56,894 nucleotides of DNA from Candidatus Moraniibacteriota bacterium (GCA_903854995.1 CAINXS010000065.1:1-56894), one strand, 5' to 3'. Counted from the stretch's first letter, positions 15,912 through 53,336 are shown. Translations and numbers: made by a program. The notes: a model not told the origin generated them from the letters alone.

Positions 15912-15976
15912 CTCAAACGATTTATTCGATGATTACTCGTGGCAAAGCGCCCCCCTTGAGATCTCGTACGAAACAG

Positions 15977-30672: not shown

Positions 30673-30693
30673 ACCATCCCGATGAGCATCTTT

Positions 30694-32145: not shown

Positions 32146-32264
32146 GATTTTTCGACGACTGCTCCCAAGCCCTGACATTGTACGGTTCGGCGGAGGAAAA
32201 GGCAAACGAAAATCCCACGCCGGCCGGTAGCGTGGGATAGGGAGGACTCTTCGATGCCTGCCGA

Positions 32265-32763: not shown

Positions 32764-33504
32764 TTATTCCTTATTCCCGTCGTTATTTTTCCGATCGAGT
32801 ATATACCATTGCTGAACGATGGAAAAGACGGTGGAAACGAGCCAATAAAGAGATAGGGCCGAAGGGAACCTCACGCCGATAAACAGCGTCAGAATCGGCC
32901 CCATGTACAACATCTGCTTGTTCATGATGGTAGCGAAATCAGCCTCTTTTCCATCATCCTGTTTTTTTTCTGCGGGCTTGTCTTGGGACAGCATCTTCAT
33001 CTGATAGAACTGGCCCAATGCCGCCAACACCGCGAAAAGAATGCTCGGCTTCTCAAGATCGGCGATACGGAAGAACTCGTGGGAAAGGGTGCCTGGGTCG
33101 GACACGAACGGGTATAGCAACGACGCGTCGACGCCGAATCCGGTCTCCGAAATCCGCATGATTACCTGATAAATCGCGATCAGGAAAACGATCTGCACGA
33201 TAAGCGGCAGACAACCCATGACCGGATTCACCTTGTTCACCTTGTACAGCTCCATCATCGACTTCGACTGCTGCTCCTTGTCATCCTTGTATTTCTCCTG
33301 TATCGCCTTGATTTTCGGTTGGAGATCCTGAAGTTTTTTCTGCGACTCTATCTGCTGTTTGGAAAGCGACACGAACAGCAGTTTGATGACTATGGTCGCT
33401 ACGACGATCGCGAGCCCGAAGTTCGCTATCGGAAAGAGATCGGCAAAAAAAATGATAAGGTTGTATACCGGCTGGTAGACGATGGTGGTGAATATCTCGT
33501 TCAT
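32764..33504 (-). CDS. yidC: Membrane protein insertase YidC (short form)
   Basis: MMELYKVNKVNPVMGCLPLIVQIVFLIAIY and GVRFPSALSLYWLVS motifs. The start MNEIF at 33504 is preferred; the ORF is open to 33537. Confidence 0.9.
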   Translation of the reverse strand: MNEIFTTIVYQPVYNLIIFFADLFPIANFGLAIVVATIVIKLLFVSLSKQQIESQKKLQDLQPKIKAIQEKYKDDKEQQSKSMMELYKVNKVNPVMGCLPLIVQIVFLIAIYQVIMRISETGFGVDASLLYPFVSDPGTLSHEFFRIADLEKPSILFAVLAALGQFYQMKMLSQDKPAEKKQDDGKEADFATIMNKQMLYMGPILTLFIGVRFPSALSLYWLVSTVFSIVQQWYILDRKNNDGNKE

Positions 33505-33512
33505 ACGTGTTT

Positions 33513-33863
33513 TCAGTTTCGGCGCGTTGAGGCGCAAATTGCATTTATAAGACCATCCAGGTCATGTCGGACTGCCCCCATTTCCAAATGTTCAGGCTTG
33601 CTTCTGAAGAATAGCACTATATGGGCATCCTCAGGAAATGACGAGGCTACCGGCGCCACCGCCTCAGAAAGTATCCTTCGGGCCCGGTTCCGCTCGACAG
33701 AGAGACGAAACATTTTTTTTGCCGATAAAAAGCCAAATTTCCGACCGGATTTTGCGGAAAAAACGATTCGGCATCCTACATTCCCGAAGAAAAAGGCCCT
33801 TCCGAAGCGAAAAGCCTTTTGAAACGACAGGGGGTTTTTCAGCCGAAGCGCGCTGGGCAACAT
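33513..33863 (-). CDS. rnpA: Ribonuclease P protein component
   Basis: 116 aa. KKMFRLSVERNRARRILSEAV (RNR motif). Position between rpmH and yidC. Confidence 0.85.
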   Translation of the reverse strand: MLPSALRLKNPLSFQKAFRFGRAFFFGNVGCRIVFSAKSGRKFGFLSAKKMFRLSVERNRARRILSEAVAPVASSFPEDAHIVLFFRSKPEHLEMGAVRHDLDGLINAICASTRRN

Positions 33864-34270: not shown

Positions 34271-34284
34271 CGGATTTGTCACGT

Positions 34285-35727
34285 ATGGAACATCAGGAAC
34301 TCTGGAAATCGGTACTCGGTCAGATAGAGCTTTCGATATCGAAGGCTAATTTCGTGACGTGGTTTCAGGGAACGGCGATCGTCTCAGTCGAAGACGGTAC
34401 CGCCATAATCAGCGTCCCAAACGGATTCGCAAAAGAATGGCTTGAAAACAAGTACAATCATACGATCATTCAGGCATTGCGAGGCTTCGATGAGACGATA
34501 CGGTCCATACGATGCATCATTTCCGGCCCTCAACCGATCAAGAAATCGTTCGATGCGGTAGTACAACCCGGAAGTCAGGCGACCATGAAGCCTGATGTCC
34601 AAAGTCAGCAGCGCACGAATTCCAATACGCAGACCACTCGCCCCGCAGGCGGATTCATTCAAACGGCGCCGAAACAGGCCACCGCGATGTTCCATGAATC
34701 GAATCTCAATCCGCGTTATACTTTCGCGGACTATATCGTTGCCGAAAACAACGAACTCGCCAACGCGGCATGTGTAGCCGTCTCCAGGAACCTCGGACAG
34801 ATTTACAACCCTCTCTTCATATACGGAGGAGTGGGGCTCGGTAAGACGCATCTCCTCCAGGCTCTCGGCAACGAGGTGAAACGTGAACATCCGGAGAAAA
34901 ACATCAAATATATCACCTCGGAACGATTCACAAGCGAACTCGTGGACTCGATAAAGAACCAGAGAACGGACAAATTCAAGGAATACTATCAGCAGATGGA
35001 CCTCCTTATCATCGACGACGTACAGTTTCTTTCCGGCAGGGAGAAGACGCAGAACGAATTCTTTCACATCTTTAACGCGCTTTACCAGATCAATAAGCAG
35101 ATCGTCATCTCGAGCGATCGGCCGCCTAAGGCGATTCCGACGCTCGAAGACCGACTCCGATCAAGGTTCGAGGGCGGCATGATAACGGATATCAGCCAGC
35201 CGAACGAGGAAACACGACTGGCAATCCTTAGAAAAAAGGTTACGGAGAAAGGCATCTCCATAGAAGAGGACGCCCTCCGCTTCATAGCGGAGAATATCAC
35301 GCAGAATATCAGGGAAATCGAAGGAGCATTGAATCGCGTGATCGCCTATTCGGAATTCTATAAGACAGCGCCATCGATTTCGCTCGTGGAAAAAGTGCTT
35401 TCCCAACTCATCATCCAAAACAAAAAGAATATTCAGACGAAAGACATCGTCGCCGCGGTCGAGAAACTGTATTCCGTCTCGGAAGAAGACCTCCTGAAAA
35501 AAGGACGCAAGAAGGGGATCTCGAATGCGCGACAAGTCGCCATGTATCTCATGCGCACGGAACTGAATATGCCTTTCTCCTCCATCGGTGACTTTTTCGG
35601 GGGCAGGGATCATACCACCGCTCTCCATGCATTTGAAAAAGTCAGTGGCGAGATCGAGAAGAACCTCCGGCTCAAAGGAGAGCTTTCCACCTTAAAGAAC
35701 GAACTCTATCAATCGAACGGTGCATAA
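34285..35727 (+). CDS. dnaA: Chromosomal replication initiator DnaA
   Basis: MEHQELWKSVLGQIE..., Walker A GGVGLGKTHLLQALG, LLIIDDVQFL, and the C-terminal DNA-binding helix FGGRDHTTALHAFEKV. A TTG at 34276 is an alternative start. Confidence 0.97.
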   Translation: MEHQELWKSVLGQIELSISKANFVTWFQGTAIVSVEDGTAIISVPNGFAKEWLENKYNHTIIQALRGFDETIRSIRCIISGPQPIKKSFDAVVQPGSQATMKPDVQSQQRTNSNTQTTRPAGGFIQTAPKQATAMFHESNLNPRYTFADYIVAENNELANAACVAVSRNLGQIYNPLFIYGGVGLGKTHLLQALGNEVKREHPEKNIKYITSERFTSELVDSIKNQRTDKFKEYYQQMDLLIIDDVQFLSGREKTQNEFFHIFNALYQINKQIVISSDRPPKAIPTLEDRLRSRFEGGMITDISQPNEETRLAILRKKVTEKGISIEEDALRFIAENITQNIREIEGALNRVIAYSEFYKTAPSISLVEKVLSQLIIQNKKNIQTKDIVAAVEKLYSVSEEDLLKKGRKKGISNARQVAMYLMRTELNMPFSSIGDFFGGRDHTTALHAFEKVSGEIEKNLRLKGELSTLKNELYQSNGA

Positions 35728-36014
35728 AGAGTGTATAAGTTCCATTTTTAACCGAATAGATGGTGGAAAAGTCGGGTACTTATCAACGTATGAAATGGGA
35801 GATGTAAGTTTTCCACAACAAGAAGCGACTCTCCGTATAAGTCGCGACAGATAGAGACAGACATATTTCAGCAACAGAAAAGCTAAAATCCGACCTATCC
35901 ACATTTCCACCACGCTAATAATCATAATAGTATACATAATATATATAATACTATTCATTACAGCACCGAAGACCATGTCGACATCCGAATACTAATCAGC
36001 AGATCGAAATACCT
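35728..36014. other. Candidate oriC (dnaA-dnaN intergenic): DnaA-box-like 9-mers plus AT-rich unwinding region
   Basis: TTTTCCACA at 35809-35817, CTATCCACA at 35895-35903 followed by TTTCCACC, TTTTCCACC on the minus strand at 35761-35769, and a very AT-rich tract at about 35916-35965 (CTAATAATCATAATAGTATACATAATATATATAATACTATTCATTA). Confidence 0.6.
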
Positions 36015-37166
36015 ATGAAAGTCACCTGTACTCAAGAAAATCTTTCCAAAGCCCTCTCTTTTTTAGAAAGAGCTACCGGAAAGCAGACTGCATTGCCTAT
36101 CCTCAGCAATTTTCTAATCCGGGTTGAAAAGGGAAAACTGAAGCTCTCATCTACGAATCTTGAGATCGGCGTCACCACCTACGTGAACGCGAAGATAGAG
36201 GGTGCGGGGGAGATAGCTGCTCCCGTGAAAATCATTTCCAACTTCGTCGGTAATCTGCCGAGTGGTGAGGTTGTTGTCATAGACGTCCAAGGAAGCGCCA
36301 TATCCCTTGAAAGCGGGGGATATGATATGAGGGTCAGGGGTCTGGATCCGAAGGATTTTCCGATCATACCGGAGAAAAAAGGGGAAACGTCGTTTCATCT
36401 TCCCGCACAGGCGTTGAAATCAGCTCTCCAGAGGATACTGCCATGCGTTTCAATGAATGAGAGTCGGCTTGAGCTGACAGGCGTCAATATGCTCTTCTTA
36501 GACGATGAGGTGCATATAGCCGCCACAGACAGCTTCAGACTCGCGGAACAGGTCCTGAGGCTTCCTGATGGTGCTTCCGGTGAAGGCTACGACTTGTTCC
36601 GGAGTCAGAATTCGTCGCTCATCCTGCCTCACATCACGATGCAGGAATTAGCCCGCATCATTTCGCCCGAAACCGAAACCGTCGCCGTGACCTTTGAGGA
36701 AAATCAGGTCTTCTTCGATATTGACGGCGTGTCGGTGGTTTCGCGTATTATCAATGGAAAATATCCCGACTACAAACAAATATTGCCGAAGGAGTTCGCG
36801 TATGCGGCGAAACTGTCCCGGGAGGAGTTGCTTCGGGCGGTCAGGATGGCGGGCGTATTCGCGTCGCAAATGAGCGGGGAGATGCTCGTTTCGGTATCTC
36901 CGGACAGCGGTGAGGTGCTGGTCGCGGCTCGATCGTCGGAGGTGGGGGAGAATCGGACGGTCATTCATGGTGAGATTTCCGGAGGTGAGCCTGTACAGAT
37001 CCTTTTCAATCCTCGTTATGTCATCGATGGCTTGAATGCGATTTCCACGGATTCCGTCTATTTTCTCCTGAATTCGCCATCCTCGCCGGCCGGATTTCGA
37101 ATGATAGGCTCCGATGGGGTTATTGACCAGGATTATCTCTATATCGCCATGCCGATCAGGAAATAG
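36015..37166 (+). CDS. dnaN: DNA polymerase III beta sliding clamp
   Basis: 383 aa. MKVTCTQENLSKALSFLERATGKQTALPILSNFLI and a three-domain clamp layout. Position after dnaA. Confidence 0.95.
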   Translation: MKVTCTQENLSKALSFLERATGKQTALPILSNFLIRVEKGKLKLSSTNLEIGVTTYVNAKIEGAGEIAAPVKIISNFVGNLPSGEVVVIDVQGSAISLESGGYDMRVRGLDPKDFPIIPEKKGETSFHLPAQALKSALQRILPCVSMNESRLELTGVNMLFLDDEVHIAATDSFRLAEQVLRLPDGASGEGYDLFRSQNSSLILPHITMQELARIISPETETVAVTFEENQVFFDIDGVSVVSRIINGKYPDYKQILPKEFAYAAKLSREELLRAVRMAGVFASQMSGEMLVSVSPDSGEVLVAARSSEVGENRTVIHGEISGGEPVQILFNPRYVIDGLNAISTDSVYFLLNSPSSPAGFRMIGSDGVIDQDYLYIAMPIRK

Positions 37167-38294: not shown

Positions 38295-38326
38295 GAAAAA
38301 CGGCCATGACCCGAAGTCATGACCGT
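38295..38326 (-). terminator. Intrinsic terminator after the PBP1A gene
   Basis: On the minus strand, ACGGTCATGAC-TTCGG-GTCATGGCCGT is followed by TTTTTCTT. Confidence 0.75.
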
Positions 38327-38342
38327 TATTTGAAAAAATGAC

Positions 38343-40910
38343 TTACCAACTGACCGATACGCTTTTCTCGCCACCAGCCTCGTTCCCATTCTTATCCTTG
38401 ACGAGGGCTTGGATATGCACCGAAGAACCGTTCCTTTCGCTCGGAACCGTGTAGGAGGTTTCGAGAGAGTCGTTGCCCGTAGACGCGACCTCATTCCCGT
38501 CGACGAGAATTTTCAGTGAATCCACGCCGTAGGGCGCGTCGGCCTTTACCTGGATCGTTACGGACGGACCTGAACCGTCCGATGAGACCGAAACATCCGG
38601 TCGGTAGCTCGAAAAATCATTCTCTTTGCACTCGTCGGTCGGCGCGTCGGCGTTGACGTCACCCTTTCCTTTGTTTTTCTTGTACCAGTCCTTCACTCCT
38701 TCCTCCCACTTCTTGAATTGAGGATCGTTTTCCGGCTTTTCAGGCGCTTTGCCGAGAGGGTCGGAGCGATCGATATAGTAGAGGATGTCATGAACGTTCA
38801 CGAAATCCTTCTTATCCGCCTTGCTGTTCGGACAATATTCGTTCGCGAGGCAGTACTTGTTGTTCTTGCCCGGAATCTCACAGACTTTCAGGTTTTCCTG
38901 CTTGTCGAGCTGTCCGTTTAGGAGTGGCTTCTTCATCCAATCCGCATCTTTGTTTTCGTCCCGAAACGTATTCACGTCGTACTCCGGAAATCTCTCAATC
39001 GCCTGGTTTTGAAGCGCATAATCCATGAATTTTCGAAAAATCGGAGCAGCGACGTTGATGCCGTCCGCGCCGGAGATCATCGCCGTGTTATCGTTGTTTC
39101 CCGCCCAGACTCCGACGGCGATCTGCGGGGTGAAACCGACGGTCCAGCCGTCACGAAATTCGTTCGTCGTTCCGGTCTTCGCAGCGACCGGACGATTATC
39201 GAACCGCAATGGGTTGTTTGTGCCGAAAACCGGGGCCCGATAATCGTTGGTCGACATGATGTGATCGAGCATGGCGACGTACTTTTCATCGACGACGCGC
39301 TCGCCGGCCGAATCCTTGAACTCTTCGAGTACATTTCCTTTCGCGTCCTCGATCTTGAGTATGGCCGTCTTGTCCCGACGAACACCGCCTTGTGCCAGTG
39401 TCGAATAGGCATTCACATGATCAAGGAGCGTGATTTCTCCTCCGCCGAGAACGAGCGACAATCCGTACCGGTTCTCATCCTGGAGACTCGTGATGCCGAG
39501 GCTTTTCGCGAAAGTGATTGCGTCCTTCACGCCGACGAGGTAAAGCGTCTTTACGGCAGGAATGTTGAGTGACTGCGCAAGTGTCTCCTTCATCGGCATC
39601 GGGCCGTTGAACTTCCCATTGTAATTCTGCGGCTTGTAATCCTTTCCCTCGTCCGTGCTGAAATTCGTTTCCGTGTCGTAGAGGATCGTCTCCGGGGTAT
39701 AGCCTTTCGTGAACGCATCGAGATAGACATACGGCTTGAAGGACGAGCCCGGCTGCCGTTCCCGGATGGCCACGTTCACCTGGCCGTCGATCGCCTTATC
39801 GAAGTAGTCGCGCGAGCCGACCATGGCGAGTATCTGTCCCGTTTTCGGGTCCATAGCGACAAGAGAGGCATTCTCCGCCTTCCATTTCCGCTCGTTCTCT
39901 ACCGCCTGATCGTGAACGATCCGCTGTGCCTCCTCCTGTTTGTCCCAGTCGAGTGTCGTATAGACCTTGAGACCCATCGACTCCACGGCACTCTCGCCGT
40001 ATTTTTGTGAAAGATAGTCTTTTACGAACATGACGAAGTGGGGAGCCGCGATGATGTCTTTCTGCGTGGCTATTTTGTCGAGCGTTTTCTCCGCGATGGC
40101 GGCATCCGCTTCCTCTTGGGTGATATAACCGAGTTTCGCCATTTGTTGAAGGGCCTTTTCTTTGCGGACGATGAGTCGATCGACATGGGAGCCATACGGC
40201 GAATAGTAGGTCGGCGCGTTCGGAAGCGATGCGAGGACGGCCGATTCATCGAGCGAAAGATCTTTCGCGGGCTTTCCGAAAAATGTCTGTGCGGCCGCCT
40301 CGATCCCGTACGCGTTCGATCCGTAGGGAATCTCGTTCAGATACATGCCGAGAATCTCGTCCTTGCCGAATTTTTGCTCGATTTCAAGTGAGAGCAGGAC
40401 CTCCTTCACCTTTCGGACAAGCGTTTTTTCGTTCGTCAGAAGCGAGTTTTTCACGAATTGCTGGGTTATGGTCGATCCTCCCTGGGCGGCGCCGCCCCGT
40501 ACGACATCCTTGAAGACGGCACGGAGAATGGAGGACAGTTTGATGCCGTGGTGCGAATAGAAATCCTGATCTTCGAGGACTAGCGTCGCGACCTGGACGC
40601 TTTTCGGGATATCGGCAAACGCGACGATAGTCCTTTTTTCCTCGCCGTGAACGTCATAGAGCAGGTGTTCGCCGGATCGGTCGTAAATCTTCGTGGATTC
40701 CGGTATGACGCGAGAGTTGACTTTCCCAGGGCTCGGCAAATCCTTCGCGACCCATGCGAAGAGCGCAATCGCGATGATGAACACCGTTCCGGCGCCCCAA
40801 AGGGCGATACGCCCGAGGATTTTCGGCCATTCGCGCCTGTCAGCTTCGGACAATCTCCGCCACCTGCCGTCCGATGGCCGGAATCGGTCAAAAAGTCTTT
40901 TCATAAGCAA
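38343..40910 (-). CDS. Class A penicillin-binding protein (PBP1A: glycosyltransferase + transpeptidase) with C-terminal extension
   Basis: 855 aa. GT51 motifs EDQDFYSHHGI and RKVKE. Transpeptidase motifs SSFKP (SxxK) and KTGTT. The last ~120 aa look like an extra beta-rich domain. Confidence 0.92.
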   Translation of the reverse strand: MLMKRLFDRFRPSDGRWRRLSEADRREWPKILGRIALWGAGTVFIIAIALFAWVAKDLPSPGKVNSRVIPESTKIYDRSGEHLLYDVHGEEKRTIVAFADIPKSVQVATLVLEDQDFYSHHGIKLSSILRAVFKDVVRGGAAQGGSTITQQFVKNSLLTNEKTLVRKVKEVLLSLEIEQKFGKDEILGMYLNEIPYGSNAYGIEAAAQTFFGKPAKDLSLDESAVLASLPNAPTYYSPYGSHVDRLIVRKEKALQQMAKLGYITQEEADAAIAEKTLDKIATQKDIIAAPHFVMFVKDYLSQKYGESAVESMGLKVYTTLDWDKQEEAQRIVHDQAVENERKWKAENASLVAMDPKTGQILAMVGSRDYFDKAIDGQVNVAIRERQPGSSFKPYVYLDAFTKGYTPETILYDTETNFSTDEGKDYKPQNYNGKFNGPMPMKETLAQSLNIPAVKTLYLVGVKDAITFAKSLGITSLQDENRYGLSLVLGGGEITLLDHVNAYSTLAQGGVRRDKTAILKIEDAKGNVLEEFKDSAGERVVDEKYVAMLDHIMSTNDYRAPVFGTNNPLRFDNRPVAAKTGTTNEFRDGWTVGFTPQIAVGVWAGNNDNTAMISGADGINVAAPIFRKFMDYALQNQAIERFPEYDVNTFRDENKDADWMKKPLLNGQLDKQENLKVCEIPGKNNKYCLANEYCPNSKADKKDFVNVHDILYYIDRSDPLGKAPEKPENDPQFKKWEEGVKDWYKKNKGKGDVNADAPTDECKENDFSSYRPDVSVSSDGSGPSVTIQVKADAPYGVDSLKILVDGNEVASTGNDSLETSYTVPSERNGSSVHIQALVKDKNGNEAGGEKSVSVSW

Positions 40911-40974: not shown

Positions 40975-41877
40975 TCAATTCATAGGAAACAGGTGATGGA
41001 TGATTTTTTTCGCGACGTTGATGCCGGTAACCTTTTCGAACCCCGTGAACTGGGCGGACGTATTTACCTCGACGGCGAGAAAACCGTTATCACTCCTTAT
41101 GAAGTCGATGCCTGCATAGAGAAGGTTTCCTTCCCGCATTATCTTTTTTGCCAACTCGTCCAATTCAGGTATCCGAGAGGCCATTTCAGCTATACCGCCG
41201 AGTGAAATATTCGATTTGAAACCGCTAGTTGCGGTACGTCGCATCGTGCCGAGTACCTCGTTGCCAAGACAGAGAACCCTGAAATCCTCTCCAGCAGCTT
41301 CCGACACGTATCTCTGAACGATGAAATCCGTATTCGATACTTTCCGGACGCCGTCCCTGTTGGTGATACTTCCCATGCATTCAAGATATCGGAGGAGCTC
41401 TTCCGTGGAGTGTACGCATTCCACGTACTTTCCCTGTGATCCTTGTCTTTTCTTCACGATGAGCGGAAATCCGCCGAGACGCTGGATGGCATCATGAAGC
41501 GACTTCATCGAGCTGACGAGATACGTTTCCGGTGTCTGTATGCCCTTCCTTAAGAAGAAGGCGTTTCCCTGGAGCTTGTCGGAAAAGCGCATGGATGAGA
41601 CGGAAGGCCATATGTCGAAGCCTTCGGCTTCCAAGAATGATTCCAACGCATGATTGATGCCCGCGTTCGAAATCGCCCAGAAGACGTCGGTAGGTCGGAA
41701 GATCAGCCGTTTTCCGTCCAGAATGATTCCGTCGTTCCCAACGAGTGTCCGATAGGAATGCACGGGCAGTATCTCGATACCGGCTTTGAGACACTCTTCC
41801 GTGAGTCGTACGTACCGGTGCTCGTTTTCCGACTCATAAAACAGCACGAGCCGTTTCGATTTGGATTTATCGTGCAT
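40975..41877 (-). CDS. RimK-type ATP-grasp ligase
   Basis: 300 aa. GFPLIVKKRQGSQGKYV, FIVQRYVSEAAGEDFRVLCLGNEVLGTMRR, SNISLGG, and YAGIDFIRSDNGFLAVEVNTSAQF are typical of RimK/alpha-L-glutamate-ligase ATP-grasp enzymes. Confidence 0.75.
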   Translation of the reverse strand: MHDKSKSKRLVLFYESENEHRYVRLTEECLKAGIEILPVHSYRTLVGNDGIILDGKRLIFRPTDVFWAISNAGINHALESFLEAEGFDIWPSVSSMRFSDKLQGNAFFLRKGIQTPETYLVSSMKSLHDAIQRLGGFPLIVKKRQGSQGKYVECVHSTEELLRYLECMGSITNRDGVRKVSNTDFIVQRYVSEAAGEDFRVLCLGNEVLGTMRRTATSGFKSNISLGGIAEMASRIPELDELAKKIMREGNLLYAGIDFIRSDNGFLAVEVNTSAQFTGFEKVTGINVAKKIIHHLFPMN

Positions 41878-43126
41878 ACTTCGCTTTGAAATATTTTTTC
41901 ACCCAACGCAGGGTTTTTACATGGTCGTCCCCGCAAATGACGACGACGACATCTCCGGGACCGGATTTTTCGGAGGACCGGCGTATGGCGCGCTCTTCCA
42001 CGAGAATCCTTTCGACGTTTTCGCGCGGCATATTTTCCAGGATACCGTTCTCGAAGAGCGCCGATACTTCTCCGATTTCCCGGACAATCGACGTATTCTT
42101 TCCGACGAACCTTCCTCTGGTCACCCCGTCGATCTTGTCGTACACGATGAGACGGTCGAACGACCGCGCGATATCCCGACCCGTTTCCCGGATCATCGCA
42201 TCTGTCCGGTCAGGCGCGAGTCTGACGACGCCGATGAGACGATTCGTCTTCAGCGAGTTTCCGAGCTCGGCTATCGCAAGGAGCGAACGCTTCTCATGTG
42301 CATAGTCGATGAGAATCGTGACGCCCTCATCATTTCTGAGAAGGGTCAGTCTTCCTCCTTCTCGGTCCGGTACGTAGCGACGTAAGATGCCGGCGATCCT
42401 TCGTGAGCTGACGTCTGTTCCGATTGCGTGCAGACCGGCAACGATGAACATCAGGTTAAAGAGCGATGGCTTGAATGTCCCGCCGAACGTCCAGGGAATA
42501 TCCCTTACGTCGACGACCTTCGTGGTCGTTTCCGCAGTTCTGATAATAACGGCATCGTGCTTGGTGGTGACCAGGGAGCCTCCCTCTCGGATGTGCCGTT
42601 CCACGTCAAAAGAGGAGAAGTCGAATCCTACCGGAAGTAGACGGATGCCTTTGTCTGCTGGGAGCGCTTTGAGTTGCTCACAGACGAGCGGATCGTCCGC
42701 ATTGAAAACTGCGGTACCATGTTCGCCGATCTGCCTGAATATGAACGACTTTGCCGCCGCGAGATCTTCGCGCGTCTTCAGTCTTCCAATGCCCAGATGA
42801 TCCTCGAACACGTTCGTGAATATGCCGACGGAATGAGATCCGTATCCGAGTCCATGGACACCGTTCGAGCCGAGCGCCGTTTCCAAGACAGCGGTGAAGT
42901 CCGGGTAATAGGGTTTCATCGTGATAAGAAATTTTCCCGGACAGACTGTCGGTGCCTTGTTGAAGAGATTCCTGCTGTCCTGAAGGGTGCTCTTTCGTCT
43001 CTCGTTTACGTAATGTCCGTCGGTATCGACCCTCAGCGTCCTCATCCCGAGCGAATGCAGAACGAACGCTATTCCTCGGGTCACCGTTGTTTTTCCCTTG
43101 GTTCCAGTAATCGAGAGTATGTTCAT
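41867..43126 (-). CDS. Mur-ligase-family protein (similar to the M domain of cyanophycin synthetase)
   Basis: 419 aa. MNILSITGTKGKTTVT (Mur-ligase P-loop), FTNVFEDHLG, and LIDYAHEKRSL (DYAH motif). Confidence 0.75.
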   Translation of the reverse strand: MNILSITGTKGKTTVTRGIAFVLHSLGMRTLRVDTDGHYVNERRKSTLQDSRNLFNKAPTVCPGKFLITMKPYYPDFTAVLETALGSNGVHGLGYGSHSVGIFTNVFEDHLGIGRLKTREDLAAAKSFIFRQIGEHGTAVFNADDPLVCEQLKALPADKGIRLLPVGFDFSSFDVERHIREGGSLVTTKHDAVIIRTAETTTKVVDVRDIPWTFGGTFKPSLFNLMFIVAGLHAIGTDVSSRRIAGILRRYVPDREGGRLTLLRNDEGVTILIDYAHEKRSLLAIAELGNSLKTNRLIGVVRLAPDRTDAMIRETGRDIARSFDRLIVYDKIDGVTRGRFVGKNTSIVREIGEVSALFENGILENMPRENVERILVEERAIRRSSEKSGPGDVVVVICGDDHVKTLRWVKKYFKAKYAR

Positions 43127-43133
43127 AAGGATT

Positions 43134-44072
43134 TCACTTCTTGAAAATATCGTAGAGGATGTCTCGAATCACGCGTCTCGCATCCCCGGCTCCCGGTTCG
43201 TAGTGGATACTGAGGCTCGGCCGGCTGTTGATTTCGAGGAAGAGAATCTTCTGGGAGTCCGGCGACTTCGAGATGTCTTCACATATCAGGTCTATTCCAC
43301 CGAGCCTGAGATTGACGGCTCGTGCCGCCTGCGCGGCCAGTGCCACGATACCCTCGTGCACCGCATCGGTGCAGTCTCGTGAGGACCCTCCTTCGGCAAG
43401 ACAGGAGTTTTCCTGGAGCAGCACCTGTTCACCGTCCTGTGGAACGGATGTCGGCGAAAAACCTCGCTTTTCAAGCGTTTCAAGCACTTTCTCGTTGATA
43501 ATGATCGTATTTCCGAAGTCGGCATTCCGGGCTTCTACAAGCGCAAGGACGGTGTCGACCCCGTTCCCGAGAATTTTCGGAGGAATCATTTCCAATGCCC
43601 CGATGATATGATCGCCCAAGACGAGGAGTCGGTATTCTCGTCCGAATGCCATTTCCTGGACGATGAATCCGCCATGAAACCTTTCGGAAACGGCGCGGAG
43701 TTCTTCCAGAGAACGGATATTGGTATGGATATTTCGGCTTTTCGATCCGCCGGATTCCTTGACGACCACCGGAAAATGGAAATCCGTCCGCTTGTCGGTT
43801 TTGAATTCGTTCGTGTTCCTGAAGTAGCGTCCGTGCGGGAAAGGGATATGGTCCCGCTCCCATAAAAGATGGGTAAGCTCCTTCGATTTCGAAAGCTTGA
43901 CACTTTCGGATTTCGGATTCTCCGCGAGATGAAACGTCTCCATTATCCTGATGGTCACGGAGCCATCAGAAATTTCCAACAGTTCCTTCTCGCGGGAAAC
44001 GATATCTACGGACAGTCCGATTCCGACCGCCTCCCGCATGATGAGGTCGGCGTTCTTGTTGAGCTTTTTCAT
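43134..44072 (-). CDS. ATP-grasp ligase resembling the G domain of cyanophycin synthetase
   Basis: FPVVVKESGGSKSRNI, FIVQEMAFGREYRLLVLGDHIIGALE...ILGNGVDTVLALVE, NSCLAEGGSSRDCTDAVHEGI, and GGIDLICEDIS...LFLEINSRPSLSIHYEP. The ATG at 44072 overlaps the upstream stop in an ATGA arrangement; the ORF is open to 44117. Confidence 0.7.
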   Translation of the reverse strand: MKKLNKNADLIMREAVGIGLSVDIVSREKELLEISDGSVTIRIMETFHLAENPKSESVKLSKSKELTHLLWERDHIPFPHGRYFRNTNEFKTDKRTDFHFPVVVKESGGSKSRNIHTNIRSLEELRAVSERFHGGFIVQEMAFGREYRLLVLGDHIIGALEMIPPKILGNGVDTVLALVEARNADFGNTIIINEKVLETLEKRGFSPTSVPQDGEQVLLQENSCLAEGGSSRDCTDAVHEGIVALAAQAARAVNLRLGGIDLICEDISKSPDSQKILFLEINSRPSLSIHYEPGAGDARRVIRDILYDIFKK

Positions 44073-45484
44073 AGTGTCGGCTTGTTCACGTCGATAAGGA
44101 ATTTCTTGAGATTCCATCGCCCGATGATGACAGGGTATTTCAGATTCGATCGGTCGACCACCGAGACTTTCGACGGGACCTCTATGCCGTCCATGATAAA
44201 ACTTAACCGGACTTTCGGGCGAAGGGAAATCCCGTTGGACGAGTAGATGAAAGCGATGTCCTCGAGATCATCGTGCTTTCCGACGTATTCTTTCCTGAGA
44301 CGCTCTTCCATCTCTCTGGCCCCCGCCCGTTCCTCGGGGACAAGACGTTCGATGGTTTCAAAATAATCGAGCACGTCGCCGAATCCGAGTTGGCAGGCAA
44401 GGTCGGTGTCTATCGATGTGGAATCAGCCCCGGTGTCGATTTTCGCGTTCACGACGATTTCTTTCCCATCCTTCCCGATAAGCTTTACCTTTTCTACGGA
44501 CCCGATGACACGCTTTCCGGAGAGCTCCTCGATTTCCTCCTCGATCTCTCCGCCGAAGAGGTTCTTCCCGAGGAGGATGCCTCGCTCGGTCGTCTTCACC
44601 TTGAGGCCCTTCACCCTATCCAGCCGACCCTTGAGTCCCGTGAGATTGGCGATCTGTATGGAGAGGCCAGGACGGGCGTTGAGTTCGAGAAGCACCGGGC
44701 CGCGATCGCGATCGATGGCGATATCCGCCCCGAGAAAGCCGAGTCCGGAAACGGATTGTGACTCGACCGCTATCCGCAGAATCTCGTTCCAGTAGGGGAT
44801 CCGGATTCCGGAGAGAGCGAGCCGTGTTTTCGGAACGTATTCGATGATGAACGATTTTCCAACGACGGCACTCGTCGTGGTTCCGGTCGCGAGGTCGATG
44901 CCGAGTCCTATCGCGCCCTGTTGCAGGTTCGCCTTGCCGTCGGATTCCCGTGTGGGGAGACGGAGCATGGCCATGACGGGAACCTTGTTAAAAACGATGA
45001 CGCGGATGTCGGGGATTCCCTTGTATGCGTACGGCTTGAACAGCTTGAGCAGCTTCAGACGTTCCTCGAAGAACGCGATATCCGGCGTGTTCGTAAGCGA
45101 ATACGATCCGTCGAGAATGTTGCGAATGTGCGCCTTGAGATCGTCGACGGTCACGACGGACCCGTTCGCCTTGACCCAGGCGTCGGTTCGACCGCGCCTC
45201 CGTCCGTAAACGATGAGTATACCTTCTCCGCCGAAGCCCCGATTCGGTTTGAGCGCGAAGCTTCCCGGTAGCGAATCCCAGTCGAAGGTATCGAGCTCCG
45301 CATGGTTTCTGATGCGCGCGACAAGGCCCGGAACGGGAAGTCCGTTCTTTCGGAGCAACCGTTTCGCGAGAAGTTTGTTGTCGGCGAACTCTCGGCTGCG
45401 GCGCCGGTTCAACGGACGCACGTAGTCGAGATTTCGTGCGTTCATGCCGAGGACCTCGCGGCTGTTTCGAAGCAGTTCGAACAT
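44069..45484 (-). CDS. RimK-related ATP-grasp ligase fused to a C-terminal retropepsin-like (RimB/DUF785-type) domain
   Basis: 471 aa. N-terminus VLGMNARNLDYVRPLNRRRSREFADNKLLAKRLL and ...ANLQQGAIGLGIDL..., LGADIAIDRDRGPVLLELNARPGLSIQ (alpha-L-glutamate-ligase-related family). C-terminus VNAKIDTGADSTSID ... VVDRSNLKYPVIIGRWNLKKFLIDV (DTGA aspartic-protease-like motif). Confidence 0.7.
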   Translation of the reverse strand: MFELLRNSREVLGMNARNLDYVRPLNRRRSREFADNKLLAKRLLRKNGLPVPGLVARIRNHAELDTFDWDSLPGSFALKPNRGFGGEGILIVYGRRRGRTDAWVKANGSVVTVDDLKAHIRNILDGSYSLTNTPDIAFFEERLKLLKLFKPYAYKGIPDIRVIVFNKVPVMAMLRLPTRESDGKANLQQGAIGLGIDLATGTTTSAVVGKSFIIEYVPKTRLALSGIRIPYWNEILRIAVESQSVSGLGFLGADIAIDRDRGPVLLELNARPGLSIQIANLTGLKGRLDRVKGLKVKTTERGILLGKNLFGGEIEEEIEELSGKRVIGSVEKVKLIGKDGKEIVVNAKIDTGADSTSIDTDLACQLGFGDVLDYFETIERLVPEERAGAREMEERLRKEYVGKHDDLEDIAFIYSSNGISLRPKVRLSFIMDGIEVPSKVSVVDRSNLKYPVIIGRWNLKKFLIDVNKPTL

Positions 45485-45488
45485 ACGA

Positions 45489-46145
45489 CTATTTCTGTCT
45501 CAAAACGTTCAGGAACCGCACGTACTCCGTCAGTCGAAGCCCGGTCCACTTGCCAAGAAGCACGTTGAGCGGAATCGTGAGTAGGACGGTCCACGGATAG
45601 GCGAGGATGAACAACACGAACGACGGCCATGAGATGAGCGCGTACCCGACCAGGGAGATGCCGAGCGTCTCGGCGGCCAAGAGAAGTGCGGCGTGAGTTC
45701 CCTTTTCAAGCTGTAAGGCGACGAATTTCTCGGTGATCGTGATCATGATGAGTAACGGGAATATCGACACGCCTGCCAGGCCGGTCCGGTGATATGCGCC
45801 TCCGATGACGAGAATGCCGAGCATGGAGAACGAGATGACCGAGAGCGTTATGGCCACACGAGGGAGATACAGCAGACGAAAACGACGAAGGACGTACCGG
45901 GTCACCATTCCGATAACGATGACGCTCGCAAAAATCGCGATGCCGTATTTGAGGCCGTTCGGATCGAAGGCGAGGAGGGCGAACGTGATTATGGAGGGCG
46001 TATATATGCCGAACGCTTTTATGCCGACGACCTGTCGGAAAAATGACGCGAGTGTCGCGACGACTGGCAGAAGCAGAAGAAGCGCCATCGTCTGCGCCGG
46101 AACGTTCTGGTCGACGATGAATTGCGTGATCGGGCTGAATTCCAT
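45489..46145 (-). CDS. Polytopic membrane protein resembling the 7TM module of inactive-transglutaminase-associated systems
   Basis: About 218 aa from the ATG at 46145 (MEFSPITQFIV...). About 7 TM helices. FRQVVGIKAFGIYTPSIITFALL-type first helix pair. It usually partners with the ATP-grasp family encoded just downstream. The ORF is open to 46262. Confidence 0.55.
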   Translation of the reverse strand: MEFSPITQFIVDQNVPAQTMALLLLLPVVATLASFFRQVVGIKAFGIYTPSIITFALLAFDPNGLKYGIAIFASVIVIGMVTRYVLRRFRLLYLPRVAITLSVISFSMLGILVIGGAYHRTGLAGVSIFPLLIMITITEKFVALQLEKGTHAALLLAAETLGISLVGYALISWPSFVLFILAYPWTVLLTIPLNVLLGKWTGLRLTEYVRFLNVLRQK

Positions 46146-46213: not shown

Positions 46214-46708
46214 CTATCGCTTTCCGTACACGCTCCGCGCCTTTCGGGAGAATGCGTGACATACCGCCACCGCGATCGCGTCGGCTGTATCGTCCGGTTT
46301 CGGAATCTCCGGGAGTCGGAGAATATTCTTTGTCATCATCTGTACCTGGCGCTTGTCCGCGGAGCCGTAGCCCGTGACCGACTGTTTGACTTGATTCGGA
46401 GTATAACCAGCGATAATAACACCGAAGCGTCTCAATGTCAAGAGGATAACTCCGCGTGCCTGGGCGACTGAAATGGCGGTTTTTGCGTTCGTGGAGAAGA
46501 AGAGTTCTTCGACGGATGCTTCTTGTGGTTCATGGATGCGGAGTACCGACTCGAGTTCGTCCGCGAGCGCGCAGAGTCGGTCCGCCGGATCGAGGCCTTT
46601 CTCCGTGGCGATATGCCCGTAGGCGATGGGCGTAAGGTTCCCGCCGTTTTCTTCGATGATGCTCCAGCCGATGATTGCCGTTCCGGGATCGATGCCGATG
46701 ATTCTCAT
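46214..46708 (-). CDS. ruvC: Holliday junction resolvase RuvC
   Basis: 164 aa. MRIIGIDPGTAIIGWSIIE and EASVEELFF acidic catalytic residues. Confidence 0.92.
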   Translation of the reverse strand: MRIIGIDPGTAIIGWSIIEENGGNLTPIAYGHIATEKGLDPADRLCALADELESVLRIHEPQEASVEELFFSTNAKTAISVAQARGVILLTLRRFGVIIAGYTPNQVKQSVTGYGSADKRQVQMMTKNILRLPEIPKPDDTADAIAVAVCHAFSRKARSVYGKR

Positions 46709-49510: not shown

Positions 49511-49790
49511 TCCCGCTGAAAAAACGGACGACATTTGAAGGCGCATTCACCTGCAGGCAAATTGGGGATTTCTATCTTTTATCCTCAAGACAGGGGGCTT
49601 ACCCTCGCGCTTACCGTTTCTCACGGATTCCGTCGGAAACGGCAAGCGCGAGATGTCCAGACATGGGTTGGGTGGTTTCGGCTGCGCTCCTCCTCGACAC
49701 TGTCCCTTCCCGAGATGTCCTTGACGTCTCGGATTGCCTGCAGCTGAATGATCCTCCAATCGGAGACTCCCGTCATCGGAGTCTTTTCTT
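49511..49790 (+). ncRNA. Candidate ~280-nt structured RNA (independent sRNA or cis-regulatory leader of the SET gene)
   Basis: Bounded by the promoter above and a terminator (AGACTCC-CGTCATC-GGAGTCT + TTTTCTT, 49764-49790). Long-range 10-bp pairing CTGCAGGCAA (49551-60) with TTGCCTGCAG (49734-43), extended by CATTCA/TGAATG. A 16-bp hairpin 49604-49620/49636-49652. A 10-bp hairpin CCGAGATGTC-CTT-GACGTCTCGG. No credible ORF. Confidence 0.45.
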
Positions 49791-49810
49791 ATATCCGAAA
49801 GCGGAGTATC

Positions 49811-50281
49811 ATGGAGCCTCATCCAAAGGAAAAGACCATGAGTTACAGCGAGAAAAACCGTGCGGTCCGTGCTTCAAACAATGAGTCACAAGGAGTCGTG
49901 GTCCGTCGGTCGTCCGCCGGGCTGGGACTGTTCGCCGCGAAGGATTTCGCCAAAGGGGAGACGGTTATCGAGTACGTGGGGAATAGGATAGCCGCTTCGG
50001 AAGCTGAGAGTCGACCGAACCGATACCTTTTTCGGGTGAGCGCGAAGCAAGATATCGACGGCAGCCCCCGGTGGAATACCGCAAGATACGCGAACCATTC
50101 CTGCAAACCGAATTGCGAAGCCGAGAACCGTCGCGGGAGGATATATCTGGTGACGCGTCGAAAGGTGAGCGCCGGCGAGGAAATATGTTATGACTACGGG
50201 CGCGAATACGTCGACGAGTTCATTCGTCCTTCGGGTTGCCGTTGTAGGAAATGCATCGACATGAAAAAAGACCCCGCCTGA
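49811..50281 (+). CDS. SET-domain protein (putative lysine methyltransferase)
   Basis: GLGLFAAKDFAKGETVIEYVG, RYANHSCKPNCEA (NHSC motif), EEICYDYG, and a post-SET-like CRCRKC. The ATG at 49811 is preceded by GGAG. The ORF is open from 49748. Confidence 0.85.
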   Translation: MEPHPKEKTMSYSEKNRAVRASNNESQGVVVRRSSAGLGLFAAKDFAKGETVIEYVGNRIAASEAESRPNRYLFRVSAKQDIDGSPRWNTARYANHSCKPNCEAENRRGRIYLVTRRKVSAGEEICYDYGREYVDEFIRPSGCRCRKCIDMKKDPA

Positions 50282-50309: not shown

Positions 50310-53300
50310 CTATTCGTCGGTGACGCGTCGCACCTCTTCGATCGTGGTTCGGCCTTCAAAAACGGCCAGGAGACCGTCAGCGGAGAGTGGAAGCATGCCG
50401 TTTTTCAACGCCGTGTCCTCTATCTCCGACGTCAACGCGTTTTCGGAGATGAGTTTCTCGATGTCCCTGTCTTTTTCCAGGACTTCCGAGAGTACGATCT
50501 GTCCCGAATAGCCGACCCCGTTACATTCCGGACATCCGACTGCGCGATAGACCATATCGGTACGGAGCGTATCGGGATGCAGCTCCTCCGGAATCATCGC
50601 GCTGATGCGACGGATCATTTTCGCCTCGTCAGCGGTCGGGTGGTCCTCCTTCCTGCAGTGCGGGCACAGTTTCCGTACGAGCCTTTGCGAAATGAGGCAG
50701 TTTGCGGCGTTCGCGAGGTCGTCGGTCGATATGCCCATCCCGAGAATGCGGGCAATCGCACCGGCCGCACTGTTCGCATGGACCGTCGAAAGCACAAGGT
50801 GTCCGGTAACGGCCGCCTGCACGGCTATTTTTGCCGTCTCTTCGTCCCGAATCTCACCGAGCATGAGGATGTCCGGGTTTTGTCGGAGCAGCACCGAAAG
50901 CGCTTCCGGGAACGAGTATCCCTCTTCCGCATTCACCTGCGTCTGCAGGATTCCGGGAAGCCGGTATTCGATCGGATCCTCGACCGTGATGATCTTCACT
51001 TCGGGCGTGTTGAGTTTCGCGAGCATGCTATACAGAGTGGTCGTTTTCCCGGATCCGGTCGGTCCGACGTTCACGATGATCCCGTTCGGCCGTTTGATGG
51101 CCGCCTCGATGCGTTCGAGGTTCTCCTTCCGGAAGTCGAGTGCGTCGAGAGAAAGTTCGACTTCCGATCCGCCGAGGACGCGCATGACGGCCGTTTCGCC
51201 GTATCCGCCAAGAATGATCGAGAGGCGGACATCCGTGCGTCCCGCTTTGACGGTATCGAACGGCGTAAGGACGGAAAGCGAGAAGCGCCCGTCGACGACG
51301 CCGGAGCGTTCACCCGTCTTCAGGCCGCTCCACAACTTGATTTCGCCAAGTACGGAAGGATAGGTATTTTTCGGAAATGACAGGACGGTCTGCAGTATGC
51401 CATCTATCCGGAACCTGACGAGGATGGTATCGTCCGTCGGTTCGAAATGGACGTCCCCGGCGTGCAGCAGAAGCGCGGCGGCGAAGATCGCGCGGAGAAG
51501 GGCGTTCTCGTCGAGCGTCGCCGCATAAGTACGGAAATCCTCAAACGAAGAAAGGTGCTCTTTCGCTTCCGAAAGAGATGATGCCGAAATGACCGACGCA
51601 CGCGAAAGCAGACTCGGCATAAGGTCCTCGTATATCTCCTGGAGCGTGTCCCTTTTCCCCGTTGCTCGCCACACCTCCTCGAGCGTCGTTATTCCGCGAA
51701 GGGCCTTGACCATGCCGTCCTGGATCATCGTCACCATGCCGTCCTCGACCGCGGCCCGCGTGATTTCACGCTCGGTTCCAAGATTCAAGATGAGCTCCTC
51801 GATCGACTTCGTTATCGTGAACGCCTCGAAGATGCCGATCCGTCCGCGGTATCCCGTGAGTCCGCACTTCTGACAGCCGACCGATTTCCACAATTTCTTC
51901 GTTTCGTGCGGAATGGAAATCTTCGCTTTGGGAGAGATGATGGAGAGAATCTGCTCGATGCCGTCAAGCGTCTCTTTCGCCGGCTCATACGATTCCTTGC
52001 AGTCGTCGCAGAGAACGCGCACGAGGCGCTGTCCGATGATAATGTTCGTCGCCGAGGCGATGAGCGACGGCTTCACTCCGAGTTCGACGAAACGGCCTAC
52101 GGCGCCCGGAGCGGTGTTTGCGTGGATGGTCGAGAACAGGAGGTGACCGGTGAGCGCCGCGTTCACGGCGACCTCGGCGGTCTCTTCGTCGCGGATTTCG
52201 CCGACGAGGATGACGTCAGGGTCCTGTCGGACGATGGCTCGGAGCGCGGCGGCGAACGTATAGGAACGGTCCTTGGAGACCTCGGTCTGCACGATTCCGG
52301 GGAGTTGGTATTCCACCGGGTCCTCGACAGTGATGATCTTCACCTCCGACTTGTTGATGGAGTGCAACAGGCTATAGAGCGTGGTCGTTTTTCCTGAACC
52401 CGTCGGGCCTGTGTTCAGGATCATGCCATGCGGGAGATTGATCGCGTGACGTACTTTTTCGAGGGTTTCCCCTTCGAGGCCGAGTGTCGGCATATCGAGC
52501 AGGACGCTTTCCGCGTTCAGGATCCGGATGTTTATGCTTTCCCCATGATTGCCCGGGATGACACTTGCCCGGAGATCCGTCTTTTTGCCGTCGACCGTCA
52601 TTTCAAAATGCCCGTCCTGGGAGCGGTCGCGGATGTTGATCTTCATTTTCGCAAGCATCTTGACCCGCGAGAGCGTAAGCCGATAGATGTCTTTGGGGAT
52701 GTTGCCGACGTCCTGAAGGACGCCGTCGATCCGATACCGGAGTCGGACGGAGTCGGCCTCGGGTTCGATATGGATGTCACTCGCGCGGAGTTTGTTCGCG
52801 CCGGCAAGAATGATTTCGACCGTCTGCGATATGGAGACTGTCGTGGCATTTTTCAGGCTGAGCAGCTCGTCGAAATTCTCCTCGAATTTCCGAAGGTCCT
52901 CTCCCGAGAGCGAGATCCGCAGCAGGTCGAGGCTTCGCAGGATCGGTGCGGACTTGTACGTCCCCCAGACCTTTTCGAGTGATTGAGTGGAAACGACGAA
53001 CGGTTCGATGGACCATCTGTTTGTTTTGGCGAACTCGGTGACGTATGCCTCGGCCTCGACATTTTCGGGGTCCGCGAAAGCCACCCGGATGGTATCGCCC
53101 GTCTTGTCGAACGCGGCGATTCCGAGCCTTCGGGCGTCTTCTTCGGCGATGAGGGTCACGTCCTCGGAATTGGCGGGAAAGATATGAAGATCGAGATAGG
53201 GAAGGCCGAGCGCCGACGCTCGCCGCGCCGCCTCCTGCTCCATCGATTCTCCCTGGAGCTCCTGGAGCAGCTTCGCGGTCTTGGCCGCCTTGCTGTCCTT

Positions 53301-53336
53301 CCAGCCCTGCCCGGACTTCTGGATGACGTGGACCAT
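50310..53336 (-). CDS. Tandem-duplicated PilB/GspE-family secretion ATPase (two complete ATPase modules in one 1008-aa protein)
   Basis: Module 1: T2SSE N-domain, GPTGSGKTTTLYSLL, VILVGEIRDEETA, TGHLLFSTIHAN, CDDC...CQKCGLTGYRGR. Module 2: GPTGSGKTTTLYSML, ILMLGEIRDEETA, TGHLVLSTVHAN, CPHC...CPECNGVGYSGQ. Confidence 0.9.
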   Translation of the reverse strand: MVHVIQKSGQGWKDSKAAKTAKLLQELQGESMEQEAARRASALGLPYLDLHIFPANSEDVTLIAEEDARRLGIAAFDKTGDTIRVAFADPENVEAEAYVTEFAKTNRWSIEPFVVSTQSLEKVWGTYKSAPILRSLDLLRISLSGEDLRKFEENFDELLSLKNATTVSISQTVEIILAGANKLRASDIHIEPEADSVRLRYRIDGVLQDVGNIPKDIYRLTLSRVKMLAKMKINIRDRSQDGHFEMTVDGKKTDLRASVIPGNHGESINIRILNAESVLLDMPTLGLEGETLEKVRHAINLPHGMILNTGPTGSGKTTTLYSLLHSINKSEVKIITVEDPVEYQLPGIVQTEVSKDRSYTFAAALRAIVRQDPDVILVGEIRDEETAEVAVNAALTGHLLFSTIHANTAPGAVGRFVELGVKPSLIASATNIIIGQRLVRVLCDDCKESYEPAKETLDGIEQILSIISPKAKISIPHETKKLWKSVGCQKCGLTGYRGRIGIFEAFTITKSIEELILNLGTEREITRAAVEDGMVTMIQDGMVKALRGITTLEEVWRATGKRDTLQEIYEDLMPSLLSRASVISASSLSEAKEHLSSFEDFRTYAATLDENALLRAIFAAALLLHAGDVHFEPTDDTILVRFRIDGILQTVLSFPKNTYPSVLGEIKLWSGLKTGERSGVVDGRFSLSVLTPFDTVKAGRTDVRLSIILGGYGETAVMRVLGGSEVELSLDALDFRKENLERIEAAIKRPNGIIVNVGPTGSGKTTTLYSMLAKLNTPEVKIITVEDPIEYRLPGILQTQVNAEEGYSFPEALSVLLRQNPDILMLGEIRDEETAKIAVQAAVTGHLVLSTVHANSAAGAIARILGMGISTDDLANAANCLISQRLVRKLCPHCRKEDHPTADEAKMIRRISAMIPEELHPDTLRTDMVYRAVGCPECNGVGYSGQIVLSEVLEKDRDIEKLISENALTSEIEDTALKNGMLPLSADGLLAVFEGRTTIEEVRRVTDE

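Follow-up and report, generated by a model that had tools for sequence, protein, structure and literature searches.

The stretch of DNA analysed here, referred to as the window, is a contig of 56,894 nucleotides from a Candidatus Moraniibacteriota bacterium (GCA_903854995.1, CAINXS010000065.1). It carries an operon of five minus-strand genes, g1 to g5, running from position 46145 to 40975, in which four ATP-dependent amide-bond ligases (three of the ATP-grasp type and one of the Mur type), a retropepsin-like domain and a membrane protein are encoded together. All five open reading frames (ORFs) were found again in the window, and independent gene calls on identical public contigs gave products of 218, 471, 312, 419 and 300 amino acids (aa), the same as here. 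The first gene, g1 (45489..46145, minus strand), encodes a 218-aa polytopic membrane protein of the 7TM_transglut family, and g2 (44069..45484, minus strand) encodes a 471-aa protein in which an RloC-type ATP-grasp ligase (residues ~8–293) is followed by a C-terminal retropepsin of the RimB/RloA type (~326–467). Two stand-alone ligases come next, g3 (43134..44072, minus strand), a 312-aa ATP-grasp protein of the type found in GshF and in the G domain of cyanophycin synthetase (CphA1), and g4 (41867..43126, minus strand), a 419-aa Mur-type ligase of the CphA1 M-domain type with both Mcore and Mlid. The last gene, g5 (40975..41877, minus strand), encodes a 300-aa ATP-grasp ligase of the RimK family, alpha-L-glutamate type.

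The genes are closely packed. Only 4 nt separate g1 from g2 and 7 nt separate g3 from g4, the stop of g2 and the start of g3 share an ATGA (read straight from the sequence as '...CTATGAAAAAG'), and g4 and g5 overlap by 11 nt. A first reading made from the sequence alone (the sequence-only reading) had described this co-directional arrangement and spacing, and both were confirmed by the ORFs and gene calls. It had also proposed a single translationally coupled multi-ligase unit, and this is supported by the start/stop overlaps, which suggest translational coupling.

Domains were called using profile scans with Pfam and NCBIfam models, in which every domain identity proposed earlier for the five products held. 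The g1 product matched the 7TM_transglut model (PF14402) with 92.6 bits and the RloB model (NF052267) with 74.8 bits, the latter only over model positions 312–507, which is the seven-transmembrane (7TM) part. Hydropathy analysis gave six to seven hydrophobic segments in g1 and none in g2 to g5. The family assignment of g1 thus stands for the 7TM part only, as the inactive transglutaminase domain of RloB is not in g1, and upstream the g1 ORF could extend only into ruvC. The ligase part of g2 scored 228.5 bits with ATPgrasp_ST (PF14397), well over the cut-off, and 285.2 bits with TIGR02291 (cut-off 314.2), covering model positions 9–291 of 317. Its C-terminal part matched PF05618 (26.8 bits) and the RloA1–3 models, and aligned with the structures PDB 9G58 and 9G59, sharing with them K-x-D-T-G-A, in which DTGA is the catalytic motif, as well as 'RP' and 'DRS..YP..G'. 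The g5 product scored 157.5 bits with the RimK family model TIGR00768, above the cut-off of 143.4, and 134.9 bits with PF08443.

By sequence and fold, g3 is nearest to the G domain of CphA1. Residues 2–311 (17–326 of the longer 327-aa ORF that was scanned, 43134–44117) align to positions ~155–473 of the CphA model with 179–181 bits, and the next-best models were GshF, with 130 bits, and Ddl, with 27 bits against a cut-off of 243. Comparison with CphA1 sequences in the PDB gave an E value of ~1e-26. An AlphaFold2 (AF2) model of g3, with a predicted local distance difference test (pLDDT) score of 89.2, was closest in fold to CphA1 G (template modelling score, TMq, 0.83), GshF (0.78) and CphA2 (0.76), with at most 0.56 for RimK/Ddl and at most 0.43 for Ddl. 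On this match g3 was taken to have the ATP-grasp fold with the G-omega insert of CphA1 G. The g3 product thus resembles the ATP-grasp module of GshF in its predicted fold, but its GshF score falls short of the 181 bits for CphA. It is 99% identical to a Candidatus Moranbacteria protein, and relatives put the window among the Patescibacteria, close to that group.

Residues of g3 were mapped onto CphA1 with roles assigned from the structures of TeCphA1 (PMC9427784). K64, K105, R148, D261, E280 and N282 of g3 correspond to K220, K261, R309, D431, E450 and N452 of CphA1, the set that serves ATP and Mg binding and catalysis, and they are invariant in 32 members of the g3 family. In the CphA1 G domain, R323, N394 and R458 bind the substrate Asp, E215 contacts the primer arginine and H267 the acyl-phosphate (PMC9427784). 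All five of these are replaced in g3, where E215, H267, R323, N394 and R458 are K59, K111, M162, C224 and S288. The CphA1 residues are not conserved in the g3 family, which has V/T/R, K/N, M/L/H, C/S/A and S/Y/N at positions 215, 267, 323, 394 and 458. In a control set of 20 full-length CphA1-type proteins, D/E was present at 215 in 19, H/Q at 267 in 19, R323 in 19, N394 in 18 and R458 in 19. The g5 product retains R and N where CphA1 binds the acidic side chain, and the same R/N pair is present in all seven RimK-type ligases of these loci, g5 included. From the M/C pair of g3 as against this R/N pair, we infer that g3 would not add an acidic amino acid, whereas g5 would.

For g4, residues 3–410 align to positions 481–859 of the CphA model (TIGR02068) with 215.2 bits, and the best score with any Mur model was 68.7 bits (MurE), against cut-offs of ~250–1000. 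Comparison with CphA1 in the PDB gave an E value of ~1e-30, and the AF2 model (pLDDT 93.7) had CphA1 M (TMq 0.81) and MurE (0.72) as its best solved folds. The protein begins directly at the P-loop (residue 8), without the uridine diphosphate (UDP)-binding N-terminal domain of MurC–F. It shares the central and C-terminal Mur domains and a MurE-like predicted fold with the Mur ligases, and differs from MurE, MurT and the others, taken together, in the missing UDP-binding domain 1 and in scores well under the Mur model cut-offs. An identity of g3 or g4 as Ddl, MurC–F or FolC, set beforehand as one of the points on which the assignment turned, was ruled out on the model scores and folds, leaving both proteins nearest to the G and M domains of CphA1.

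The catalytic residues of the M domain are all present in g4, with K12, T13, T35, E82, D109, H110, R259 and H277 corresponding to K499, T500, T522, E558, D585, H586, R731 and H748 of CphA1. Throughout the stand-alone M family K12, E82, D109, H110, R259 and H277 do not vary, and at least 90% of the members have T13 and T35. Two features differ from CphA1. N497 in the CphA1 P-loop is a lysine in g4, as in ordinary Mur ligases, and the loop that aligns with the Mur specificity loop reads Y-D-K-I-D-G followed by variable residues in the stand-alone family. The same loop in CphA1 M is (R/K)-E-D-D-D-L-R-G-R, of which R-G-R is invariant in 16/16 sequences and absent from the stand-alone family. By analogy with MurE, we take this loop to lie at the site of the incoming amine and, on that assumption, to bind arginine in CphA1.

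These similarities raise the question of whether g3 and g4 are a true two-subunit cyanophycin synthetase, in which g3 would extend a poly-Asp backbone and g4 would add Arg, making cyanophycin as a nitrogen store. The two genes are the closest homologues of G and M (CphA1 structures 7LG5, 7LGJ and 7WAC) and lie in the same order as the domains, with the break between them coinciding exactly with the G/M domain boundary. The residues for ATP, Mg and catalysis are all present, among them the equivalents of D585/H586 and R309, and it is likely that the chemistry, from carboxylate to acyl-phosphate to amide on a growing peptide, is shared as well. Automatic pipelines label both genes cyanophycin synthetase, and a preprint accepts such annotation in Saccharimonadia at face value. 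Separate genes, neither reaches the whole-protein CphA cut-off (TIGR02068, 850 bits), with scores of 179.5 for g3 and 215.2 for g4. All CphA1 enzymes have an N domain, which holds the polymer and often makes primers (PMC9262961). A hidden Markov model built from 24 N domains (PF18921) found no match in the six-frame ORFs of the window (E<=10) or in 78 related loci. Likewise, no Pfam match to cyanophycinase (Peptidase_S51) was found among the 47 window ORFs scanned, smaller ORFs lying outside that scan, and the genes are set among RimK/Rlo genes rather than beside cyanophycinase. The replacement of all five Asp and primer residues in g3, the missing R-G-R loop and the fact that most loci bearing an M-like gene have no G-like gene also argue against cyanophycin, and we regard its synthesis here as highly improbable. 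The 'split cyanophycin synthetase' of the sequence-only reading therefore stands as a statement of homology but not of function.

The ancestry of g4 points the same way. In a search of 1.84 billion representative proteins, stand-alone M proteins of ~420 aa formed ~85 clusters scoring from 456 down to ~135 bits, and the fused CphA1 proteins that came next scored no more than 135 bits. When a distance tree was rooted on other Mur ligases, the stand-alone M proteins formed a clade that no fused, N-M or M-M form entered in 96/100 resamplings. This tree places the stand-alone M proteins as sister to the CphA1 M domains and not nested among them; a recent fission of a CphA1 gene was ruled out on the same support. 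In the G-domain tree, the stand-alone proteins were monophyletic in just 2/100 resamplings, and the sister relationship is drawn from the M tree alone.

Some unusual architectures were seen among the M relatives. Two proteins of ~600–645 aa (P0272 and P0292) have the N domain (PF18921) directly joined to a Mur-like M domain with no ATP-grasp G domain, an architecture not mentioned in the CphA literature found, and P0269 is a 972-aa M-M fusion. At L012:9902–12474 and L016:7982–10548, two M-like genes lie in tandem (jackhmmer scores 565 and 489), and neither an ATP-grasp nor a retropepsin gene was detected close by.

The sequence-only reading had called the trio of 7TM protein, ATP-grasp ligase and retropepsin functionally uncharacterised. 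This is no longer the case, as the trio was named in 2025 as the Rlo system of Pseudomonas aeruginosa (PMC12239564). Alpha-linked poly-Glu and the Glu tails of ribosomal protein S6 are made by RimK and cut by RimB, and RloA cuts runs of at least eight Glu (PMC12239564). Mutants of P. aeruginosa that have no protease show defects, and these are relieved when rloB or rloC is lost as well (PMC12239564), as expected if the product of the ligase must be trimmed. The g1 and g2 products belong to the same three families as RloABC, a 7TM_transglut membrane protein, an ATPgrasp_ST ligase (TIGR02291-like, though under the cut-off of that model) and a DTG-motif retropepsin. However, g1 does not have the periplasmic inactive transglutaminase domain of RloB, and the protease, which in RloA is secreted with a signal peptide, has none here and is fused to a cytoplasmic ligase. 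The operon also has three further ligases. As RloB is reported to be 96% proteobacterial (PMC12239564), the Patescibacteria version widens its range. More than 120 protein clusters keep the RloC::retropepsin fusion of g2 at an identity of at least 67%, and g2 is far more conserved than g3 and g4, whose relatives reach 62% identity or less. With net charges of +13 and +12, g2 and g4 would suit acidic substrates.

The RimK-type parts suggest a narrower explanation, in which the operon only tails a protein (S6) and no free polymer is made. The g5 product exceeds the RimK family cut-off, a RimB-type retropepsin domain is present, and the conserved core seen in Saccharibacteria (M – RimB-like – RimK) amounts to the Rim module with one additional ligase. 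Some of the ligases neighbouring M-like genes match TTL and YheC/D models, and proteases of the RimB/RloA type cleave glutamylated RpsF in vitro (PMC12239564). However, g5 scores 108.7 bits against a cut-off of 331 with the S6-ligase equivalog (PRK10446), the retropepsin here is fused to g2, an extra Mur-type ligase is always attached and a 7TM partner is unexpected in the modification of a ribosome. A tblastn search with an Escherichia coli S6 sequence as query detected no rpsF in the analysed sequences, and there was thus no S6 C-terminus to inspect. Tailing of S6 as the whole function appears improbable, and it overlaps with the reading favoured below, which allows for either a free peptide or a tail.

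A scan of one genome per species identified 74 loci, nearly all labelled Patescibacteria and spanning Moraniibacteriota, Magasanikbacteria, Saccharibacteria, Andersenbacteria, Campbellbacteria, SR1 and Peregrinibacteria. Neighbouring ORFs were classified by iterated profile searches and Pfam. Co-occurrence was then counted within 7 kb of the M-like gene in 36 species-level loci with at least 4 kb on either side of it. An ATP-grasp ligase of any kind was found near M in 33/36 loci, a RimK-like ligase in 31 and a retropepsin domain in 29. The G-like ligase (11/36), the RloC-like ligase (6/36) and the 7TM protein (5/36) were less frequent. The sequence-only reading would have been refuted had the genes not been conserved together in related genomes, which was not the case, and the first three counts were taken in favour of the acidic-peptide reading given below.

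Two layouts recurred. In Saccharibacteria, the core M – RimB-like – RimK often follows a G-like ligase and a 354-aa protein. In the Moranbacteria-like layout, RuvC is followed by the 7TM gene, RloC::retropepsin, none to three small ATP-grasp genes (of the G, RimK, YheC/D or TTL type), M, in some cases RimK, and a class A penicillin-binding protein (PBP1A). Across the clusters, one to five small ATP-grasp genes of differing subtypes lie beside M, a mixture that resembles an assembly set. Fusions between retropepsin and ligase were of three kinds, with the retropepsin C-terminal to an RloC-type ligase, C-terminal to a RimK-like ligase (L040) or N-terminal to RimK (L048 and L050), and they provide Rosetta-stone evidence for one pathway.

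It could be argued instead that the five genes are unrelated neighbours, each ligase having its own role and the packing simply reflecting the dense, co-directional genomes of Patescibacteria. The whole stretch from RuvB to PBP1A is indeed co-directional, and the composition of the cluster differs among species. Against this, the start/stop overlaps suggest translational coupling, M, ATP-grasp and retropepsin genes recur together in Moranbacteria, Saccharibacteria and other lineages despite rearrangement, and the three retropepsin-ligase fusions arose independently. We consider chance neighbours very unlikely.

Two further genes were seen in these neighbourhoods. The ~354-aa gene between the G-like and M-like ligases in Saccharibacteria is conserved and has no Pfam match (L077:6908–7972, also in L035, L038, L044, L045 and L068). 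At L034:453–1787, a 445-aa ATP-grasp_4 protein with an L-amino-acid-ligase C-terminal domain (LAL_C2) lies directly upstream of the M-like gene, in place of a RimK-type ligase.

The reading that we favour, tentatively and at a little short of an even chance, is that the operon encodes an ATP-driven, ribosome-independent set of ligases by which an acidic peptide based on glutamate is assembled, branched or capped, and trimmed, either as a free oligomer or polymer or as a C-terminal tail on a protein. The sequences show which domains the proteins have, that catalytic residues are intact and substrate residues changed, how tightly the genes are coupled and how they are conserved; from there onwards, we infer the substrates, the order of the steps and the product. 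The retention of g2 in more than 120 clusters despite genomes of ~1 Mb was also counted in its favour. In this scheme, g5 and the RloC-type domain of g2 would add acidic residues in alpha linkage, as RimK does. The M domain of CphA1 phosphorylates a side-chain carboxylate at the end of the peptide and then joins it to an amine (PMC9262961). In a similar way, g4 would phosphorylate a carboxylate of the acidic peptide, most likely in a side chain, and join it to an amine that is probably not arginine, giving an isopeptide branch or cap. The g3 product would put a non-acidic residue on the C-terminal carboxylate, the retropepsin domain of g2 would trim poly-acidic stretches, and g1 would link the process to the membrane as an anchor, exporter or sensor.

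Several points weigh against this scheme. The proposed product is deduced from gene content rather than from chemistry. The acceptor and amine of g4 are conjectural, 'not arginine' coming from a loop mapped only by analogy with MurE, and g5, as a member of the RimK family, could simply glutamylate S6. The M-like gene stands alone in 3/36 well-flanked loci. Outside the window, the exact set of five genes was found at the species level only in L010, where the order is different, and a set that occurs only twice and in differing order may consist of modular parts rather than form one machine. The neighbourhoods were also gathered by searching for M, and the counts cover RimK/retropepsin pairs that have an M-like gene beside them.

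A more specific version joins these proposals with the ancestry of the ligases. The product would be an as yet undescribed branched poly(amino acid) or protein tail, with an alpha-Glu backbone made by the RimK/RloC-type enzymes and a further residue added on its side-chain carboxylates by the M-like ligase, and the stand-alone G-like and M-like proteins would represent the lineage that was fused into cyanophycin synthetase. Taken as a whole, this version is doubtful.

The operon lies between ruvC (46214–46708), 68 nt upstream of g1, and a gene for a class A PBP with transglycosylase and transpeptidase domains (38343..40910, minus strand; Pfam Transgly and Transpeptidase on the identical contig), starting 64 nt past the end of g5 and running in the same direction. 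The PBP1A gene, the presence of which directly downstream had been noted earlier, may be on the same transcript as the operon. A promoter-like site at 46413..46441 (minus strand; TTGACA-17-TATTAT with an extended TG) falls within ruvC, in its 3' half and ~270 nt ahead of g1, and matches 11/12 consensus positions, such sites being no commoner in the region than expected by chance. The first strong terminator-like hairpin downstream of g1, with a 13-bp stem, is just past the PBP1A stop codon (38299..38327, minus strand), and is likewise a consensus match alone at chance density.

This setting led the sequence-only reading to suggest a link to the cell envelope. In the form weighed here, the M-like ligase would act on a stem-peptide carboxylate of lipid II or nascent peptidoglycan, and PBP1A would use a side chain or cross-bridge made by the ATP-grasp ligases. 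ATP-grasp ligases add cross-bridge residues in some Gram-positive bacteria, and MurT likewise is without a UDP-binding domain. The adjacent PBP1A gene, ahead of the first strong hairpin, is consistent with such a role, as is the RuvC–cluster–PBP1A order, which was seen again in several related species, with PBP1A directly after the cluster in nine related loci. Rlo mutants of P. aeruginosa also show cell-shape, beta-lactam and osmotic phenotypes (PMC12239564). However, the M–RimB–RimK cluster of Saccharibacteria is not beside PBP1A. In L044, L047, L055 and L059, the RuvC–PBP1A pair is 6–8 kb away from it, and the adjacency seen here may therefore reflect insertion into an old synteny block. 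In addition, g4 is nearest to CphA1 M rather than to MurT or MurE in sequence and fold, a Saccharibacteria locus carries a separate, true MurT/GatD pair, and the retropepsin and RimK indicate poly-Glu chemistry. The envelope link via the PBP is thus possible but weak, and envelope tailoring as the function of the operon seems unlikely. The acidic-peptide reading remains the one that we favour.

The window contains several other features. The genes dnaA, dnaN and yidC (60KD_IMP), at 34276–37166 and 32764–33537, are within 10 kb of the operon, placing the cluster near the region of the chromosomal replication origin. On the other side, a 1008-aa protein (50310–53336, minus strand) has two T2SSE stretches (secretion ATPase of the PilB/GspE type) and an MshEN domain, and is apparently a tandem-duplicated pilus/secretion ATPase on one polypeptide. 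Between this gene and ruvB, on the opposite strand, is a gene for a SET-domain protein of the lysine methyltransferase type (49748–50281, plus strand). A surface-polysaccharide block (26474–32268, minus strand) is made up of two adjacent Wzy_C (O-antigen ligase-like) genes, a GT2 glycosyltransferase and a Polysacc_synt flippase, and AT skew is strongly positive across 26–32 kb. The window also encodes a complete five-domain GH78 alpha-L-rhamnosidase of 949 aa (15929–18778, plus strand), a catabolic enzyme that is out of the ordinary in a Patescibacteria genome of reduced size. The 12–14 kb stretch just upstream of its gene is low in G+C (0.42) and includes a gene for a TSP3-repeat protein.

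All parts of the operon come from known enzyme families, and it is the union of CphA-like ligases with RimK/Rlo genes for which no earlier study was found. The literature searched held no study of stand-alone CphA-like ligases or of this union, priority against the amidoligase survey of Iyer et al. 2009 being unchecked, and the Southlakia transposon sequencing (Tn-seq) paper does not mention these genes.

Many Patescibacteria retain, in genomes of ~1 Mb that encode little biosynthesis, a cluster of between two and six amide ligases that consume ATP, a conserved and energetically costly pathway in this major uncultured lineage. Were its product a new peptide polymer or a new modification of proteins, the Rlo system, which is genetically defined and chemically blank, would gain a biochemical handle. 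The small, soluble, single-domain ligases would also be on offer for making designed branched peptides. On the same condition, it would become clear what the two catalytic halves of cyanophycin synthetase do in their nearest free-living relatives, and a recurrent mis-annotation as 'cyanophycin synthetase' that has already been used to infer nitrogen storage in Saccharimonadia would be mended. Should the branched-tail version also be true, the product would be a Glu-based counterpart of cyanophycin, or a bacterial counterpart of the branched polyglutamylation of tubulin.

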